35,729 nucleotides of DNA from Dirinaria sp. TL-2023a (GCA_051941275.1 JAVEBF010000067.1:1-35729), one strand, 5' to 3'; shown: positions 4,742 to 27,225, numbered from the stretch's first letter. Made by a program: numbers and translations. The notes: generated by a model from the letters alone, not told the origin.

Positions 4742-5190
4742 CGGGATGGCGTTCTGAAAACACCCAGATAGATACCCCGTTTAGATTTGTGGATTTATGC
4801 GCATTTGGGTAGCGTGGGATGTATTTCGACTGAAATTACAGAATGTAGAAGTAGCGAAAACATGATCAATGTGCTTCTGTCACTTACAATCGCCATTACC
4901 GTTCTTGTTTTTCGGTCCTTAGAAGTTGTTTTTGGAGAATATATATACTCCAAAAGTAATGTAGCGATCTTAGTAAGTAGGCAACCTCACCTACGCATGG
5001 CCCTGTCTTGCAAGCAGAACAACGGGCAAACTCATAATTCTACTTATAGGCCCCTTTTTTCTCGTTTCGTTTTTTGGGGAGTTATCGGAGATTCCCGCAA
5101 AAAGATGTGTTGCTATCTGCATAGAAGAATCCCGCGCTTTGCTTGGGATACAATTAATTTGGCCTCGTGTATCAGAGACACTTGTGCACA

Positions 5191-17381: not shown

Positions 17382-19054
17382 ATGTCTGAAGATGGAAACC
17401 CTAGGAGGGACTCTTCCACAAGTCAAGATTCGAAATCTCCATCAGACGGTCAGAGAAAGCAGACCGTAAAGGTGTCGAACAGCCGAGGCTGTCTGGAAGT
17501 GCCTCCGCAATCTTCATTTAGGCCTTCTTTCGGGTCTCTTTCGGACTTGTCATCGAGCACCGTGGACAGTCATGGAGAGATTGAAGAGTATGCTGGTCGC
17601 CCATTGGTGCATGGAGGTGCTCGGCCTCCATCTAGGGCTCCTAGACCGGAGAGCACCTTGGGCCAACGAGCGAATGGCGCATGGGCCCGCAACAAAGGCC
17701 TGATATTGGTCATATTAGCGCAATTTTTTGGAGCTCTTATGGGTGTCACAACGAGGCTGCTGGAGACAAATGGGGCTCATGGTCGTGGCATGCATCCTTT
17801 TCAAGTAATGAACTCCAATGCAGTGCTGCGTGACCATAACTTCGCTGAGATGTCGTGCATAGATACTTTTCGCCCGGACGAGCATTACACTGCTCTTCAG
17901 TTTCATGTATCTGTACTGGGCTAGCGTGCCTCATGCGCCTTTCGGAAAACGAGAGGTCCGGGCTCTGCTGGTAGCACGTGGCTTGGGTGGGTTCGTTGGA
18001 GGTATGTAATAATGTGTTGCTCTAGAGTCTAGAATCGAGAGGGAACCATTGCTGATCCACTTTTTCAGTTTTTGGATTTTACTGTGCGTCCCCTCGGGCC
18101 TGAGCAACCGAAAACCGGCGCTCATAGAGCTTAGACTCACTGCGCTATCTACCACTCGCTGATGCGACAGTTATTACCTTCCTTGCACCTAGTGTGGCCT
18201 GTGCTGCATGCTGGATTCTGATAAAAGAGCCTTTCACTCGCTCTCAGCAGGTCGCTGGCTTGGTGTCTCTCTTCGGCATAGTTTTGATAGCACGCCCAAC
18301 CTCTCTCCTACCGGGCATTTCTTCGGAACAGCCATCTGTTGCTTCTGGCAGTGCTGATGCCGTTCCACCACCAATTAACTTGACCTCCGGAGCTCATCCT
18401 GTTCCGCAAGACAATGCCACGCCTACCCAACGTTTAGCTGCCATTGGTTTAGGCTTGATTGGTGTTTTTGGTGCGGCCTGGTAATTACTACTCCCCGTCG
18501 AAGATAATTAAAATATGACTGCTAAGACGTGTAGCGCTTATACTGCGATAAGATGGATTGGTCAGCGCGCTCACCCTCTGATTTCCGTAACCTACTTCTC
18601 TGCATGGTGCACGGTCGTCAGTGTCGTCGCCGTCCTTGCAGTACCCGGCATAGATTTTAGGTTGCCAGAGAATCTGGTGGAATGGTCCTACTTAATTTTC
18701 CTAGGTGTATCTGGGTTTCTCATGCAATTTTTACTCACTGCAGGGCTTGCGCACGAGAAGACTTCTCGGGCGACCAATATGATCTATACGCAGATCCTCT
18801 TTGCCCTCGCTTTTGACAAATTAGTGTTCGATGTCACACCCGGCAGTTGGAGCATTGTTGGAAGCAGTCTTGTTCTAGGAAGTGCTATGTATATCGCGGT
18901 ATATAAAGAGACTCCGACAGTGAATAATCAGGCTGGCGAGTCGGCGGACGAGGAACTGAATCTAATGCAACGCGAGAACACGGAGCCTGAAGAGAGGCAG
19001 TCACCTTACATGCATGGGCTGGAAGAAGTTCAGTTGAGAACCATGCGGATATGA
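17382..19054 (+). CDS. EamA/drug-metabolite transporter (DMT) family membrane protein
   Basis: Multi-TM protein with MHPFQ|ILFAR, LLVARGLGGFVG|VFGFY|YSLRYLPLADATVITFLAP, AA|CAYTAIRWIGQRAHPLISVTYF, QFLLTAGL, RATNMIYTQILFAL. Introns 17805-17862, 18002-18068, 18084-18134, 18481-18534. Confidence 0.9.
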
Positions 19055-19430
19055 TAGATGAGTATGACTGTGCATGGAAGATTTAAGATGTGGCCACTAA
19101 AATCTGGGCAAGACTCAAGAACAGACATGAATCTATAATTAGTAAAGAATCCATCAAGTGAGGACTTTCGTATGAAGTACATGTACTATAAGCACGGACT
19201 GTTTCCCGCTTCACAAAGATCGGGCGTGATATTTCCCTTGACTGACTTGTGCACTTACGGTAAGGATTTGATTTGCATTCTCCTGGTCCTGTGATTTGAT
19301 AACGTAGCTAAGCATTGAAATGGAGCTCCTGTAGATCATCAATTACTTATGGAAGGAAATTAATCAATGTGTTGCGTTGAGTAATCGCTTCAATATTACA
19401 ATATATATATCATAATTGTTAGACTCTTTC

Positions 19431-19530
19431 AAGGAATTCCGATGATGGTGCAGAGGGCTGCTCGAAATATCGCGGATAAAACCGCGCTAGTCCAGAGTGC
19501 TGGCGCTGATGTGCAGTCGGATTCCTTTTT
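19431..19530 (+). ncRNA. Candidate structured RNA polymerase III ncRNA of unassigned family
   Basis: TATA-like ATATATATAT 19401-19410; A-box-like TGGTGCAGAGG 19446-19456; terminal stem AAGGAAT(T)CCGA/TCGGATTCCTT; internal hairpins; T5 at 19526-19530; B box GTTCGAACC 19555-19563. Confidence 0.55.
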
Positions 19531-19554
19531 GTCCTTTTTGTACCAAGGCCGTCA

Positions 19555-19563
19555 GTTCGAACC
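19555..19563 (+). promoter_or_regulatory. Pol III B box (TFIIIC site)
   Basis: GTTCGAACC is a perfect match to GWTCRANNC. It is intergenic and not inside a foldable tRNA cloverleaf. Confidence 0.55.
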
Positions 19564-19590
19564 ACGCAGCAATCGCTTTCTGATTTTCTA

Positions 19591-19610
19591 TTTTTTTTTT
19601 TTTTTTTTTT
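19591..19610. repeat. Poly-T20 tract (possible strong Pol III terminator or nucleosome-excluding tract)
   Basis: 20 consecutive T, starting 28 bp after the B box. Confidence 0.85.
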
Positions 19611-19939
19611 ATCTACATTACTGAAAACCCTACGGCAGCTCTGAAACCTATTTTCTCCGGCTTAGTGGTGAGTACGGATAAAGAAAAGTTACCAAGACCT
19701 GGATCAGGTCCGCTCAAACCTGCGTACTTGCACTTTTTAGAAGGCCTCAATAGGACCGAGGGACCGAGTCGGGCATAGAATTAGGTACCTTATCTTATCC
19801 ACTCGTTCAACTCGCTTAGATTAGGGCATGGAACGCGGATCTAATTCCGCCTACTTTTATCTAAAGTGGCTACTTTTACTCTCATACATGTAACCTGACC
19901 TATTTATTTCGAAGTCCTTCATTCCATTGGCATCTCGAA

Positions 19940-20954
19940 ATGGCCTCCCTAGGCCTGGACGAGTCAGAATCGCAAGGCAATCTTCTGACAATCGCGGAGG
20001 ACCTAGTACCTTTGCGCACGGAACGGCCGGAACCAACCATATCCCTCGACTTCTCGGGCCTCCTCAACCCACCCTTAATCCTCAAGCAGGACTTGACAGA
20101 AGGATGCGGTGGAAAAACCTGGCCTGCGGGCATGGTTCTCGCCCAGTATCTTCTGCGATGCAAGACGGAGGAATTGCAGGACAAGACCATGTTTGTACGC
20201 TCCGAGGTTCATTTGATGGGCAGAAACCCTGGTCCTGCGGCGAGAGAAAGTTTTTGGCATCCCTTGTCCTGACAAAAAGAGTCGTGAATTTATAGACTTG
20301 AGTTAGGAGCTGGTAGCGGACTTGTGGGGTTTGTGAACTCTCCATTTCCTCTCCATTTCCCGTGGGTCGGTTTTTAATTGGGTCCTGATGCTTGTCTATC
20401 ATACCTAGCCTGGCTCAAGCTCTCAAGTTCAGCGCCGTCGTGCCCAAACACCCCGATTTGCACATCTCCTTGACCGACATCCCACCCATGCTACCATTGC
20501 TAAAGCAGAATCTCTCTCTCAACACCACCTCAACCCCTGTTGAGGTGTTTCCGCTATCTTGGGGCGACCTTTTACCTGCAACGCTCCGGCCACCCGACAT
20601 TATATTGGCTGCGGATTGCTGTTACTTCGAGCCCGCGTTTCCGCTGTTACTGGATACATTGGAGCAGCTTTTACGTCGTCGAGAAGGTGCAGTGTGTTTC
20701 TTTTGCTTCAAGAAGAGGAGAAAAGCCGATTTAGGGTTTGTGAAGATGGCGCGGAAGAGGTTTGATGTAAGAGAAGGAGGGAAGGATGGCCCTGAGAAAA
20801 TACACTGGGAAAGGGAGGGGATTTTCCTGTGAGTTTTGCCTTCCACTCCCTTTCTAGGGATGGGAACAAAGCTGGGTGTATAGATGGTTTATGTTTCGCT
20901 GACGGATTCTGTCTGTTCAGTTTTGAGTTCAGGACGAAGCTCGGCAGGGCGTGA
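19940..20954 (+). CDS. EFM6: Protein-lysine N-methyltransferase Efm6 (family 16 methyltransferase, eEF1A)
   Basis: GCGGKTWPAG, ILELGAGSGLVG, DIILAADCCYFEPAFPLL, FCFKKRRKAD. Introns 20191-20295, 20329-20408, 20829-20920; stop TGA 20952-20954. Confidence 0.9.
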
Positions 20955-21260: not shown

Positions 21261-24200
21261 CTAAGAGTAATGGAACGCATTTCGACATAGCGGGCAACTA
21301 CTCGAGTTACTGCTCTTGAACCAGCGATACAAACAGCCTCCATGGAACATATTCCTACATGTTCCACACCGTTTACTTGGCAACTGCTTCTCCGCGCTAA
21401 CCACACTGTAGCAGATACTACATTCTGTCTGCCCCTTCAGCGTGGCCGTAACATTCTTTCGCCACGCCATCAGCCCCTCGATAAGGCTTCCTCCATTACC
21501 TTCGTTGGAGAAGTTGATGACGCCCTGAGTAGTGATCAGCCAGGAGCGCCATTTCTTTTCGTCGACGCCAACGCGGTGGACGGACTCGACCGTTGCGCGT
21601 TGGAGAGGGTAAGATTGGGGAAGATGGATGGCGATGGACATTGTTTGCTCGTCGATGGGGATTGAAGCGGTGATTTGACGGGTCGAAGCGGAAACTTTGA
21701 TAGTGAGGGGTTGGTCTGCGCTGGCTTGGGATGGGCTCCACTCGCTGACGGCCGTAAGCTCGCGGCCGATTATTAAAGGTGATATCTACTCAAAAATTAG
21801 CTTGTTTGAAAGTGGCTTTGGGGGAATTAAACAATCACATACATATTTCTCGGTCCATGATTCGACGTCGATTGTAGTCTGGCGCGATGTTGAATCTCGC
21901 CACCAGGTCTTCGAGAGGTTTGGCAGGCAGATCAGAGAGAGCACATACAGATGGATAAGCAGAGCATGCGTAGTTCTTTCTGGAGATTCTCCTTCCTCGG
22001 GAGAGAAATCCATCAGATCGTATTTGGAAGCGTCTACCGGTCTAATCCTGCCTGTGATGAGAACGTCGAAAATGAAATCCAAAAGGCTCTTCAAGTAAGA
22101 TCCGTCTTTCAGCGAGACTGCATAATCTGCCTGGACGCTGTAGGATGCATTCGTCCAATGATCAAAGACTAGCTTCCAGCTTAGAAAATAGCTGCGGAGT
22201 GACACTGGCATCGTTCGTTCAAAGCTAGACTCATTTAAAGTTTCTTCATCTGGTGGCGCTAGTATCAGAGACAGTAGCTCTTCTGGTAGTCGTGCCACGT
22301 AGTCTTTCGTCAAGGCTTTGTCTAATGATTTTTGCTCCTGTTCTTTTGGAATGTGATCGTGTAGAATGCTGTATGCGGCTTGCTGTAACGCGCGAGACTC
22401 GGAAGCAATGATTGGATATAGATCTGACGCGTCTGAGACTGACTTTGAGGGTGAGCTAGCTATGTGTCTCGACAGTAGCTCGTTCGTCATTGCCCGGGGT
22501 TGATGGTTTTCATCGGAAGTGCCTGTTCCGAATCAGTAAGTGAGTGCCATGTAGCAGGTCGGAATTTCTTACCTTGAAGCTCCCTCATCAAGCGGACGAG
22601 ATTTTCGCTTATTGGCCCTTCGTTGTCTCTCCAAGACTCCTCCAGATCGTCATTCGAGCCTTGATTTACTAATTTTCGGAGCTTTGCTAGAAGCCTTAGA
22701 CTCATGTAGATGAGAGGAATATTTTCATCCGACCCCGACTCTGTGGATGACCAGATAGTGGGTAGTATTTGCAAAATATCCCCCCAGAAGGTTTCGTAGG
22801 TATCTTTGATACAGGGCAAAACAATGATCAAAGCATGAAGAGCTTCTTCACGAACAGGCACTGATGGCACATCGCTCAGTGTTTTCACCAAAGCTTTAAC
22901 AAAAAACACCAGTCGCGGTTTCGGAATATTTATCACAATTGTTTCCTCCTTGTCGGTGATCGCATTAAAATATAATAAATATTTCCATCCTAATAAAATT
23001 TAGCATATGTCCGCACTTAACCAAGTCAGCACTGTATTTACCTCTTTTGATATCCTTGAAAAAGTCGAGACCAGTTAGATCGGCTACTAGCTCATTTGCA
23101 TACTTCGTCAACTCTTTCGACGGCCCTGCCGATGTGAGTATTGCCATTGTGTGGATAGCGGAGTCTATCCTCCTTGATTCCCGAGTTCTTGACACTAGCT
23201 CCGCATTGTTGAAAAGGGCGTCGCCGTGGAGCTCCCTCAGCTGTGAACTTATAGCAGAGTACATACGCGCATTATAATAAGAGGATGTTGAGGAACCAAA
23301 GCAGCCATCCAATATTTGTTGTTTCGCAGCAATGACAATTTGGGCCTTCTCCTGGTCCCATGCTGCGCACAGGCTTTGGACTTCTGAAACGAGACCAAGA
23401 ATCTGGGTTTCTATGTCTGTTCGCTGAGTATCCCAAAGTGCATTGGGTTTTGTAATGCTCAAATGGTCATTAATAAGTGTCTGAGTAAGCTCCAGTTTAG
23501 AATATAGGAAAATTATCTCGTCTAGAGTCCAATTTTTGGTAATGTCAGTCGCCCTAATCAATCGTGTGCAGTATAATGCTAGTCGTATAGCAGAGGAGAT
23601 TCCATTAGTGTCCCAGGTTATAATTGAGCCCACATCGTCCGCAGACGCAGAAGGCGAGCTGTCAACCAATCCTACAACGCTACACAAGGGGTTCGTGACA
23701 GCAAGCGCTGGATTGGGCGCCTGGCTGAGGATTGGCAATAGTGCTGCATCCCACTGTCCTACTCTGGGTAAAAGGGAGGCCGCCACAGCTTCTTTGTGTG
23801 TCTCGTCGGTTTCTTCATAGAGCTTCTGTGCTTGGGCTACGAGAGTATCGACAGGTAAAGATGAAGCTGTAGGTCTGTCCAGACCATCAGAGACAACTTC
23901 GAGCAAGGAGCGTTTAACCTGTGCGAGTCCCTTTTCACCCGACAGAACGTCCTGTATAGTATTGCTGAGAGAATCTGCTTGACTGGCAATGTGAGCGTCT
24001 GGCGATTTAGCTAGAAGGAGAAGCCTTGAAAAGAGGTTCGAGCCTTTAGGAGTATTGGCGAAAGTGAGCAAAGCCCCCTTGTTAGTTTTGACAGAAATAT
24101 CCAATCCATGAAGACATTTCCAAGCTTGCTCATCAACGGCTAGCCCATCAAGCATTGTAGAGAGGAGGCTGTCAACAACATCGGCTGGAGTTGCAGGGTT

Positions 24201-26330
24201 GCGCATTGTTGTTTGAACAAGACTCCAATTGCTCTCATAGCCTTTGATCGCATCCTGTAGAAGCTGCGCAGTGAGTTCCTGCAAACCTTCATTGTTGCCT
24301 GTTTTATCAAGCACCGGTGAGGAAAGTATGCTTGTCAAAGCTCTCAACTTGGATGGGGAATTCTGCTCCGCTTTCAATGACTCTATACCCGCCTTATAGA
24401 TTGGAAGCACATCCATGCGACCGTGCAAATGATCCAGGATTGTAAAAATATAAGGGACGGATGGAGATGCAAGTACAGTGGGGATGTTGGCTTGCAAAAA
24501 GCCGTACAACATCGATATTAGATCAGCGCTTCCATAGACAAGTTCCGGCGTAAGTTCCAAAGCCGCTGTCAATGTTGCAGCTGCTCCGTAAGGCTTCCCA
24601 TTCCGAGTTGCAAGTAAGTCTATGGCTGCTTTGAGCTCAGAAGCAGAGGTTGCTTGGAATAGAGACTTAATAGACTGGGAATCAGTTTCCTTCATGATAG
24701 CTCCTTCAAAGCCATACCATCTTCGCGACGCATCTGCCACGGAATCCTGGGATTTCGAGTATTCTTTTGACTGCTCCGGAAGCGATGTTTTGATGTGCTC
24801 CACAATCTTAGCGGAAAGGCTTAGCCAATGCTTACACAATGCATCTTGTGCGCCATTCCAAACCAGAAGGAATGCTCTGACACAGATGCTCTGCTGAAAT
24901 TGTTGCGGTGCCGCTATCGACCACTCTGATGCGTCTTGGTTAAAGACAGCGAAGGCTAGCACTATTGGCAATGCATAACGTATAAGATACTGCTGACGGA
25001 CGTCGCCGTCCGTTTGTAGCGTTTGCACGCGCTCGAAGACTTGTAGGTATGTGCTCCAAGCCTGAGCGAGATTGGCTCGCGGCTCACTTTTGCTACGAAG
25101 ACCCACAAGAATTGCGTCAAGCAATAGTGACTCTTTTCGTGCGCCCTCTTCAACCATTATCTCCGGTTTTTGCTCACCTAGCTCACTCAGATCGGTTTGT
25201 AACATTTCCTCTGGAATGCACTGCATGAGTAGGCCGACCTGAACCCAGAAATCGGGCGGAGCGCTTTGCGAGCCCTTTCTGAGGAATTGCTGCAGTCTGT
25301 TTTCTGCAGACTTCTTGCCTGATCCTGAATAATATTTCGTCCAGACTTCTGGATAATGCCTTGTCAACAATGCAAGAGCTTTTGAGTAGTCTAAGTTTGA
25401 ACCTGTCTGGTCGATATGGAGGCTTGAAGTCAGTACTTTAGCGCTGAGCAGCTTCATGTCAATTGGGTGCTCCTTTCCAGTCAGGAGAGCAATGAGTAGT
25501 TTATACACAGCGCGGCGGACGAAAGCATCAGAATGCGAGGCTAAGTTCCAGACATCGATTTGTGACAGAAACGAGTTGAGCGACTTCTTATGGCCTGCGT
25601 CATCCTGTTGGCGATTGATCTCTAGAATTCTAGCTACGACAAGTATCGAGGCTCCAACGACTCGTGCATACTTTGCCAAAGCATCGTCAGGACTGGTTGT
25701 CCGCTCGTCACTTAGTGTATAGACCGACTCTTTTGAAATGGCTGTGTGGCAATGCTCGATGATGGCAGATTGATACAATTTCCATAGGCTGCCAATCTTC
25801 TCTTCAGAGGAAAATGCTTCCTCCAAAGCATCTTGCGCGGCACGGCTGACACTCCTATCATTATCGTACAAGCCTGCAAGCCATGGTCCAACTAGAGCTG
25901 GTAAGGACTTGGCGATACGTTTACCGAAAGAGACACATAGATGGCCTTGACAGCGGTGAGCAAGCAGGCGAACCCGACGTGCGTTGTCTATGGAGGTACG
26001 AGGGTAGAGACCCACCCAAGCCTCCAGTATTCCCTCCTCGATATGTTCCGATTTGTGGGATTGGATGTATGTTGTCAATTCTTCTAGCGCTTTAGCCTTG
26101 GTAGTGCTATCTTTCTTTTGTAAATTTTTGTATGAGACAATGACAGTGGGATCAGAGATGCCACTGAGACTCGGGGGCTCGTAGATGTAGGACAAAGCGG
26201 AAGCAGAGACAGCACCAAGCGAAGCCGGGACACCAAAACTTCCTGTGGGTTGAGATCCATCTGTCACCATAAATGCCCCAGAGACCGCTCGACTGCTCGA
26301 AGCCTGAGATTTGAATTGCTTTTTACTCAT
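21261..26330 (-). CDS. LTN1: E3 ubiquitin ligase listerin (ribosome quality control)
   Basis: N-terminal MSKKQFKSQASSSRA, KNLQKKDSTTKAKAL, LYPRTSIDNARRVR; C-terminal RING ECSICYS...CGTCRNMFHGGCLYRWFKSSNSSSCPLCR. Introns 22990-23041, 22523-22572, 21786-21842 join the four ORFs in frame. Confidence 0.96.
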
Positions 26331-27225
26331 GATCACGCTCGGGCTGGCTAGAAAAGATAATGTGAACTTGCGAAATATCTATGCAGGAAAGTGATGAGTT
26401 TGGAATGGCATATAAGGAAACCAGCATTTCTTAAACTTCAAAGGATGGGTTGTCTAAGTACTTATATATGCGCTCAAGCAATTAAGGAGGTGTTAAATCC
26501 CGCAGTGAGCCAACATAATTCGGTGACTATCATAGTCCAAAAAAAAGGTAACCGAGGAACACATCAAGCCATCAGCCACAGAGATGGGCTTCAGAATGCG
26601 CTGTTTTAAGTGCTTTCTCACGTACGCAATCGATTGTGGAATGTACCATTTTACTGGTCATGACATAGACTCGATTGTGAAGAGGCAATGAAGGTGATTC
26701 AGTGCATATGAACTGCATTTCAAAAGCAGAAGTGTAGGTATGTGGCAAACTAGTATAATTTGGTAAGGTGGCGAGGGTGGCTCAACGATTTGATGACTCC
26801 GCCGCGCTTTCGCGGGTCGCGTCCCCAAGGCTTGTTTCGCGTCGGCAAGATATTTATCTAAGGAACTGGAGTCATCGAGTCATCCTCTTTCAAGTGAGAC
26901 CACATCACTTCATTATCTTATGGACCCATAAGGTATGCATCATTCCTGTATCCAATGCTCAATACTACTTCTACGCACACACGCATATGCAGAAATGCGA
27001 CCAACTATCACGTCAGTCATGTGATATTCAAGTCAGCATTCGAGATTCGAAGAGTATTGAAGACATGCTCTTAGGACCTTCAAATCACTTCGAGCTTTAG
27101 GCAAAGTTTTCAACACGGCACGGATAGGATAGCTGCCACAGTAGTCTGCCATTTCGTCCACTTGGGAAACCTAGAATCCATCCATTCGGTGTCAGAAGGG
27201 GCTTCTAGGTCTCTAAAGAGGAAAT

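Follow-up and report, generated by a model that had tools for sequence, protein, structure and literature searches.

A GC-rich island of 97 nt, lying between two protein-coding genes, has the look of a small gene transcribed by Pol III. Our tentative reading, to which we give a little less than an even chance, is that it is no RNA gene: it would be a non-genic, lineage-specific part of an 885-nt spacer that imitates a Pol III unit. As a Pol III gene the island is an unproven candidate, and coincidence is somewhat more likely than a gene. The window, by which we mean the whole stretch of DNA analysed, is 35.7 kb long.

In the reading we prefer, AT-rich signals of the flanking Pol II genes would enclose a GC-rich imperfect palindrome without demonstrated function. 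The (TA)5 run and the U-rich runs may be of the kind that serves fungal mRNA 3′-end formation, in this case that of the upstream transporter gene, and the T20 tract may be of the promoter-opening kind and belong to the promoter of the downstream methyltransferase gene. The A-box-like and B-box-like words would then be coincidences that complete the Pol III look. That the (TA)5 run and the T tracts belong to the flanking genes is inferred by analogy with known yeast polyadenylation and promoter elements.

Genomic Setting and Layout of the Locus

The window is of eukaryotic type, with a fungal look. The spacer separates two genes on the same strand, one for an EamA-family transporter and one for a protein of the Methyltransf_16 (lysine methyltransferase) family; the Pfam match of the latter lies in plus-strand frames from 19865. 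Beyond the methyltransferase gene, a listerin (LTN1) gene is found on the minus strand (Pfam). The island is placed 377 nt past the transporter stop codon and about 410 nt before the methyltransferase ATG. The features of the locus, in order of position, are as follows.

18512..19054, plus strand: last exon of the EamA-family transporter gene (Pfam); the stop codon ends at 19054
19401..19410, plus strand: (TA)5 run, 21–30 nt 5′ of the island start at 19431
19431..19527, plus strand: GC-rich island, the candidate RNA body, 97 nt, GC 0.536, an imperfect rod-like hairpin
19431..19443, plus strand: 5′ arm of the closing stem, AAGGAATTCCGAT, made up of AAGGAAT, the bulged T 19438 and CCGAT (MFE)
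19442..19624, plus strand: ATG-started ORF of 60 codons, open from inside the island to beyond T20, with both T5 runs and the B box in between
19443..19453, plus strand: direct repeat, copy 1, TGATGGTGCAG, which supplies the C-box-like ATGATGG (19442–19448)
19446..19456, plus strand: A-box-like word TGGTGCAGAGG, 2 mismatches to TRGCNNAGTGG, 15 nt inside the island (+16)
19471..19486, no strand assigned: apical perfect palindrome CGCGG-ATAAAA-CCGCG
19506..19509, plus strand: D-box-like CTGA, beginning with the C that precedes repeat copy 2
19507..19516, plus strand: direct repeat, copy 2, TGATGTGCAG (TGATG-TGCAG)
19516..19527, plus strand: 3′ arm of the closing stem, GTCGGATTCCTT, continuing into T5 (MFE)
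19523..19531 and 19532..19540, plus strand: the two copies of a tandem duplication of TCCTTTTTG
19526..19530, plus strand: first T5, candidate Pol III terminator, overlapping the last two stem bases
19535..19539, plus strand: second T5
19555..19563, plus strand: B-box core GTTCGAACC
19591..19610, plus strand: T20 tract, about 330 nt 5′ of the methyltransferase ATG
19811..19850, plus strand: the sole spacer block conserved in a relative, CTCGCTTAGATTAGGGC..GCGGATCT.ATTCCGC
19940..20832, plus strand: start of the Methyltransf_16 gene (Pfam), with its ATG at 19940 and the frame of the second exon running to 20832

A preliminary description of the locus had listed the (TA)5 run, the island, the A-box-like word, both T5 runs, the B core and T20, and each of these was found where that description had put it. 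The direct repeat, the apical palindrome and the 60-codon ORF are three additions to that list. The island had also been described as richer in GC than its surroundings, and the composition agrees: 0.536 against 0.28 and 0.32 in the 100-nt flanks. It is in fact the top GC-contrast peak of the 35.7-kb window (0.226, with the next at 0.189, taken over 97 nt with 100-nt flanks). The peak begins at 19430, which coincides with the start of the 5′ arm of the stem, and this sharp edge speaks against the non-genic reading.

The ends of the island pair, as had been noted, with one bulged pyrimidine, and the 3′ arm passes directly into T5. In the MFE structure the closing stem consists of 7 bp, the single bulged T (19438) and 5 bp. 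Above it come a 4-by-1 internal loop and then an upper stem rich in G-U pairs.

Some of the elements can be read in two ways. For the (TA)5 run, a TATA box and a UAUAUA-type 3′-end efficiency signal belonging to the upstream gene are equally good readings. T20 could act as a strong Pol III terminator that ends a read-through form of the RNA, or it could be a poly(dA:dT) promoter tract. The apical palindrome is either the tip of an RNA hairpin or a DNA-level CGG-N6-CCG site, a form of site of the Zn2Cys6 kind. Since GTTCGAAC in the B-box core is a palindrome, the strand of the B box is ambiguous.

Motif Matches against Chance

The preliminary description took the island to be an independent Pol III gene giving an RNA of about 100 nt or a longer read-through form. 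We consider such a gene, here taken as lineage-specific, unlikely, though it is the strongest of the alternatives. On that account, TFIIIB would bind the (TA)5 run and initiation would occur at A19431-A19432. The internal A box would lie at +16, and the extragenic B-box core would recruit TFIIIC. Termination at T5 would then give an RNA of about 97–100 nt with paired ends and a 3′ oligo-U for La binding, together with a minor read-through form ending in T20. The geometry of the locus suits a TFIIIB/TFIIIC-type unit well, a point against the non-genic reading: TATA lies near −30, the putative start is C/A, the A box follows at +16, the stem ends in T5, and the B core comes 25 nt later. All the elements are present at SNR6-like spacing, and the island is the sharpest of the window and set in AT-rich flanks, as is usual for tRNA-type genes. 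How much weight these words can bear depends on how often they turn up by chance.

The A-box consensus used here was TRGCNNAGTGG. With up to 2 mismatches allowed, it was matched 174 times in the window against 153.9 expected. The A-box-like word does lie 15 nt into the island, as described earlier, but at 2 mismatches it is of a quality seen 174 times in the window, which is chance level and counts against the Pol III gene. The B box had been called perfect. This is right for the 9-mer GTTCGAACC, which is exact, and does not extend to the 11-mer consensus (GGTTCGAANCC, also written GGTTCGANNCC), from which the site by reading differs at 2 positions, a further point against the gene. Three matches to the 11-mer at no more than 1 mismatch occur in the window, and the site at 19555–19563 is outside these. 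The core pattern GTTCGAANC is found once in the window, at this locus, against 0.90 expected, and at least one match was present in 53 of 100 shuffles. In favor of the gene, this only B-box core of the window falls 25 nt past the T runs, and TATATATA is rare, with 2 occurrences in the window against 0.18 expected; the same rarity tells against the non-genic reading.

Stems that run into T tracts proved ordinary. When the 84 runs of T5 or longer were ranked by duplex energy with a partner 55–170 nt upstream, the locus came sixth. Stems into such runs at −12 kcal/mol or lower numbered 16 in the real window and 9.3 per block-shuffled window. A 3′ arm that ends in T5 or longer and has a partner 55–170 nt upstream is thus a common arrangement here. 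Together with the chance-level A and B words, it supports the non-genic reading.

The elements were also taken together, by a rule that combined a stem into T5, TATAWA 15–40 nt upstream, an A box between +5 and +30 that differs from the consensus at 2 positions at most, and a downstream GWTCRANNC. This locus is the one place in the window that fits the rule, and none of 150 block shuffles holds such a place, whereas the stem, T5 and TATA subset alone occurs in 16 of the 150. The figure of 0/150 overstates significance and is an upper bound on surprise, because the rule was composed after the locus had been seen. Read with that limit, it argues for a Pol III gene and against the non-genic reading, and its being tuned to the locus is in turn a point against the gene. 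In sum, the Pol III words taken singly are mostly at chance level, TATATATA being the one rare word; even so, the whole constellation with its compositional edge is unlike what a random spacer would be predicted to give.

Folding of the Island

The fold signal of the 100-nt form is modest: −36.3 kcal/mol, with z = −2.16 and 6 of 200 shuffles equally good. The opposite strand reached z = −2.78 (1/200 equally good). The 160-nt read-through form stood at z = 0.06, with 95 of 200 shuffles equally good. Since the plus and minus strands fold alike, the signal comes from an inverted repeat at the DNA level and favors neither strand. That both strands fold supports the non-genic reading, and the Pol III gene is the weaker for a z no better than that of the opposite strand and for an unstructured read-through form. 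What does set the strands apart is in its favor. Three G-U pairs in the plus-strand stems become A-C mismatches on the minus strand, and no T run follows the island on the minus strand.

Searches for Known RNA Families

The preliminary description had assigned the RNA to no recognized family, and the Rfam check is in keeping with this. Rfam 15 gave no match at the gathering thresholds in the whole window. At E ≤ 10 only three junk matches, none of them credible, were returned for 19300–19750; the models of U6, Y RNA, vault, 5S, SRP, tRNA and ribozymes had no match in this interval. The lack of an Rfam or tRNA match is consistent with the non-genic reading, and the lack of a family weighs against the Pol III gene.

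Three classes that the first description had set aside found no support here either. For U6 snRNA, ACAGAGA is by reading absent from 19431–19610, and no U6 model matched at E ≤ 10. ARAGORN found 0 tRNAs in the window and no tRNA model matched at E ≤ 10, in line with the earlier statement that a cloverleaf is lacking. A tRNA with a long intron fares no better, as the B core is not enclosed by T-arm pairing and an acceptor complement is missing. The 5S model, likewise, was silent at E ≤ 10 over 19300–19750.

Two further identities were tried and rejected. Words of a hammerhead are present (CCGAUGA...GAAA...GUC and CUGAUGU), but stems I and II fail in either permutation and no Rfam ribozyme matched at E ≤ 10. 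Reading CCUUUUUG as the Sm site of an snRNA fails for want of the leading purine-A, and no snRNA matched in Rfam.

A box C/D-like small RNA, made by Pol II or by processing, is very unlikely in our estimate. Its box C would be ATGATGG and its box D CTGA, the long outer stem bringing the two close to each other, and it would be transcribed on its own from the (TA)5 run as TATA or cut from an unannotated intron. The C-box word agrees at 6 of 7 positions, and an exact CUGA lies with it near the ends of a stem-closed unit of about 97 nt. The only Rfam near-match inside the island, far below gathering, is to that end of an archaeal C/D family model which carries the C box (E = 4.4; 14 bits against a threshold of 40 bits). 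The placement of box D, however, does not suit such an RNA: the CUGA at 19506–19509 sits 7 nt (UGUGCAG) from the 3′ arm, so that a C/D kink-turn beside the terminal stem is impossible as drawn, and a canonical box C/D snoRNA was rejected on this ground. In the MFE structure, the GUGCA that follows box C is base-paired to the UGUGC behind box D. Nor is a D′/C′ pair evident.

A guide to rRNA is also lacking upstream of the CUGA: the 14 nt preceding it have no Watson-Crick run of 9 nt or longer with 18S, 5.8S or LSU rRNA of other organisms. The rRNA targets were plant-type and fungal-type rDNA loci that contaminate bacterial assemblies, mapped with Rfam; a target specific to the lineage of the window may exist beside them. 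The sole notable complementarity is one of 12 nt (Watson-Crick) between island positions 84–95 and the LSU word GGAAUCCGACUG, which grows to 17 nt (island 83–99) when G-U pairs are included. Of the 5 loci with this LSU word, 3 have it exactly (L022, L029 and L036), two of them, L029 and L036, with a 5.8S of plant type; the other 2, L005 and L008, read GGAATCTGACTG, with T instead of C. As a guide this match was rejected: it lies in the 3′ arm and U tail with no D box following, a 12-nt complement was reached in 4 of 100 shuffles, and only the plant-type variant matches exactly. We treat it as chance.

The island can be read as the start of a small protein-coding gene as well, since a single ATG-started frame, the 60-codon ORF at 19442–19624, crosses it with an exon-like GC content. 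We think this highly improbable. The first 47 residues matched 0 proteins at E ≤ 0.001 among 1,835,955,588 representatives, tblastn against the two related loci described below gave a best E of 2.6, and the C-terminal third is poly-Phe from T20. A frame of such length is, moreover, not rare by chance.

In the literature, four words of the island retrieved only an unrelated human primer, and at the level of search listings nothing describing such an RNA was found for filamentous-fungal Pol III RNAs or for fungal Y RNA and Ro60. One paper deals with 15 fungal RNA motifs, none of which, as described there, resembles the island (PMC5640933).

Comparison with Relatives

The pattern GATGATGGTGCAG-N45-70-CTGATGTGCAG had 0 matches in metagenome contigs and 0 in viral contigs. 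Relatives were sought in metagenome contigs by means of the last transporter exon; among 103 pattern matches, two loci were confirmed (L001 and L002), on contigs of 518 and 913 kb. Their transporter exon has 69% amino-acid identity to that of the window. The two represent one lineage and have spacers identical to each other.

The order from EamA to methyltransferase is kept in both loci, and so is the 40-nt block at 19811–19850 within the spacer. We take this block to be part of the methyltransferase promoter or 5′ UTR and separate from the candidate. A scan for bacterial-type promoters and terminators, which does not apply to a eukaryote, picked out nothing but the conserved palindrome at 19835–19850 within the block. 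The distance from the stop codon to the block is 757 nt in the window and 422 nt in the relatives, making the former about 335 nt longer. In the spacer alignment nothing matches the island, and blastn-short against both 8.5-kb loci gave no match longer than 14 nt. The B-box core is unconserved there, the aligned CAGTTCG...AACCA being broken by 7 nt. No second copy of the island was found in the 35.7-kb window or in the two 8.5-kb loci.

The conservation of the 40-nt block implies that functional elements of the spacer can survive at this distance. The failure of the island to align therefore means that it is no conserved syntenic element at this depth. The syntenic relative without the island and the absence of a second copy from the window are both points for the non-genic reading, and that the syntenic site of the only relative lacks the island counts against the Pol III gene. 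The lineage is distant, however, so that absence from it is compatible with a young or relocated gene, and this tempers what the comparison can say for the non-genic reading. A young Pol III gene with a U6-like split promoter, giving an RNA of about 97 nt with paired ends and oligo-U, would fit the comparison; we regard it as doubtful, at a probability well under one half.

The comparison bears, too, on a reading without RNA function, in which a small foldback or MITE-like element, or some other inserted GC-rich fragment, left the island behind as a relic. It would be a unit of 97 bp with imperfect terminal inverted repeats of 12 bp at its ends, and we judge it to be quite unlikely. The island is a discrete unit whose compositional edges match the inverted repeat, its strands fold equally well, and the extra length of about 335 nt relative to the other spacer is what an insertion might leave. 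An insertion of this kind has no target-site duplication adjoining the arms to show for it, though, and neither the window nor the two related loci hold another copy. The 11-nt direct repeat AGTAATCGCTT/AGCAATCGCTT, which sits outside the arms at a distance of 40 nt, was rejected as a target-site duplication, being at chance level, with about 0.65 such repeats expected in 400 nt.

Likeness to Known Systems

The nearest model for the layout is SNR6 of S. cerevisiae, which has an upstream TATA, an internal A box and a downstream extragenic B box. To our knowledge, this split promoter layout is otherwise known in fungi only for U6. The locus is like SNR6 in having TATA near −30, an A-box-like word 16–20 nt in, a T run, and a B core past the terminator. 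It differs in that the RNA is not U6 and in that the B core is about 25 nt past the T runs, against about 120 nt in SNR6.

With tRNA genes and tRNA-derived SINEs the locus shares AT-rich flanks around a GC-rich island, words like the A and B boxes, and a T run, whereas a cloverleaf, a T arm and acceptor pairing are lacking and 109 nt separate the A word from the B word. With box C/D snoRNAs it shares AUGAUGG and an exact CUGA near the ends, closure by a stem, and a typical size, but the D box stands apart from the terminal stem, no rRNA guide is present upstream, and no family comes near gathering. Fungal foldback elements and MITEs are likewise short units with inverted-repeat ends, and the island is missing from the relative's syntenic site as they might be. 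Unlike them, it has no target-site duplication, its body is GC-rich rather than AT-rich, and no second copy was found.

Paired 5′ and 3′ ends followed by oligo-U are the usual shape of La-bound Pol III transcripts. In this respect the candidate is like the Y RNAs and the nematode stem-bulge RNAs, which are about 100 nt long with paired ends and then oligo-U. As in Y RNAs, the lower stem of the island has 7 bp and then one bulged pyrimidine, which lies on the 5′ strand; an internal loop separates it from the upper stem. In its boldest version, the Pol III gene would on the strength of this lower stem, 7 bp with a bulged pyrimidine, encode a Y-RNA-like RNA of the La/Ro type. The Ro60 site combines a helix of 7 bp with a bulged C and, across from these, a bulge of 3 nt in the other strand (PMC4726728). 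The bulge in the island, in contrast, is U and not C, the 3-nt bulge is absent, and Y_RNA of Rfam did not match at E ≤ 10. On the predicted fold, the Y-RNA likeness is one of resemblance and not of membership. According to a review of 2015, fungi had yielded no candidate of this kind (PMC4726728), and if the island were Y-RNA-like it would bear on the existence of stem-bulge RNAs in that kingdom.

The preferred, non-genic reading and its main rival thus lead to different lessons. If the imitation is a coincidence, AT tracts of two Pol II genes around a GC-rich palindrome can mimic a full Pol III unit. If the island were a true gene, it would add an orphan RNA to a fungal Pol III repertoire that is regarded as small and well charted, and it would show a split promoter of the SNR6 type at work, in a filamentous fungus, for an RNA that is not U6.

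Conserved Block Upstream of the Methyltransferase Gene

The spacer between the EamA-type transporter gene and the Methyltransf_16 gene was compared with the syntenic loci of a relative (L001 and L002), in which a single part of it, lying about 90–130 nt 5′ of the methyltransferase ATG, has been kept:

19811–19850: conserved 40-nt block; about 4943–4983 in L001 and L002

The block contains a TTAGGG-like word, TAGATTAGGGC, and a palindrome, GCGGATCT(A/G)ATTCCGC, with the layout CGG-N8-CCG. It is probably a control element of the Methyltransf_16 gene, acting in the promoter or the 5′ UTR. The putative factors, we presume, would be of the Tbf1-like and Zn2Cys6 types.

Complementarity of the Island to LSU rRNA

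The 3′ arm of the stem formed by the island (the GC-rich, hairpin-forming candidate RNA body), together with its U tail (window 19514–19529, island positions 84–99), is complementary to a universally conserved stretch of LSU rRNA, AAGGGGAAUCCGACUGU. The pairing extends over 12 nt by Watson-Crick pairs and 17 nt when G-U pairs are included; a 12-nt complementarity was attained in 4 of 100 shuffles, and the exact pairing is confined to the plant-type variant.

Eukaryotic rDNA in Prokaryote Assemblies

The ITS4 primer site was present in at least 58 contigs (L003–L060, genome_contigs) from assemblies labeled as bacteria or MAGs. Eukaryotic SSU, 5.8S and LSU rRNA (Rfam) were found on all five of the long ITS4-site loci mapped. 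The 5.8S start word was matched in seven loci, being of the plant type in three (L023, L029, and L036) and of the fungal type in four (L017, L039, L043, and L060). The ITS4-site loci are eukaryotic rDNA contamination of prokaryote assemblies.

Other Features of the Window

Three further features were mapped:

19442–19624, + strand: 60-codon ATG ORF that takes in the island together with both T5 runs, the B-box core and the 20-nt T run (T20)
19658–19668, + strand: A-box-like CGGCTTAGTGG, one mismatch to the A box
21261–26378, − strand: gene for the E3 ligase listerin (LTN1), whose N-terminal domain, HEAT repeats and RING domain are all represented

The LTN1 gene, spread over at least three frames or exons, is ordinary. 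The T20 part of the ORF translates as poly-Phe, and a homology search with the first 47 residues of the ORF returned no relatives. The rare word TATATATA, found at the (TA)5 run upstream of the island, has a second copy at 4940–4947 and no others in the whole window. The segment at 19658–19668, which matched no tRNA or other family, lies 50 nt 3′ of T20 and adjoins a GTGAGT word; with its one mismatch, CGGCTTAGTGG is closer to the A box than is the word inside the island.
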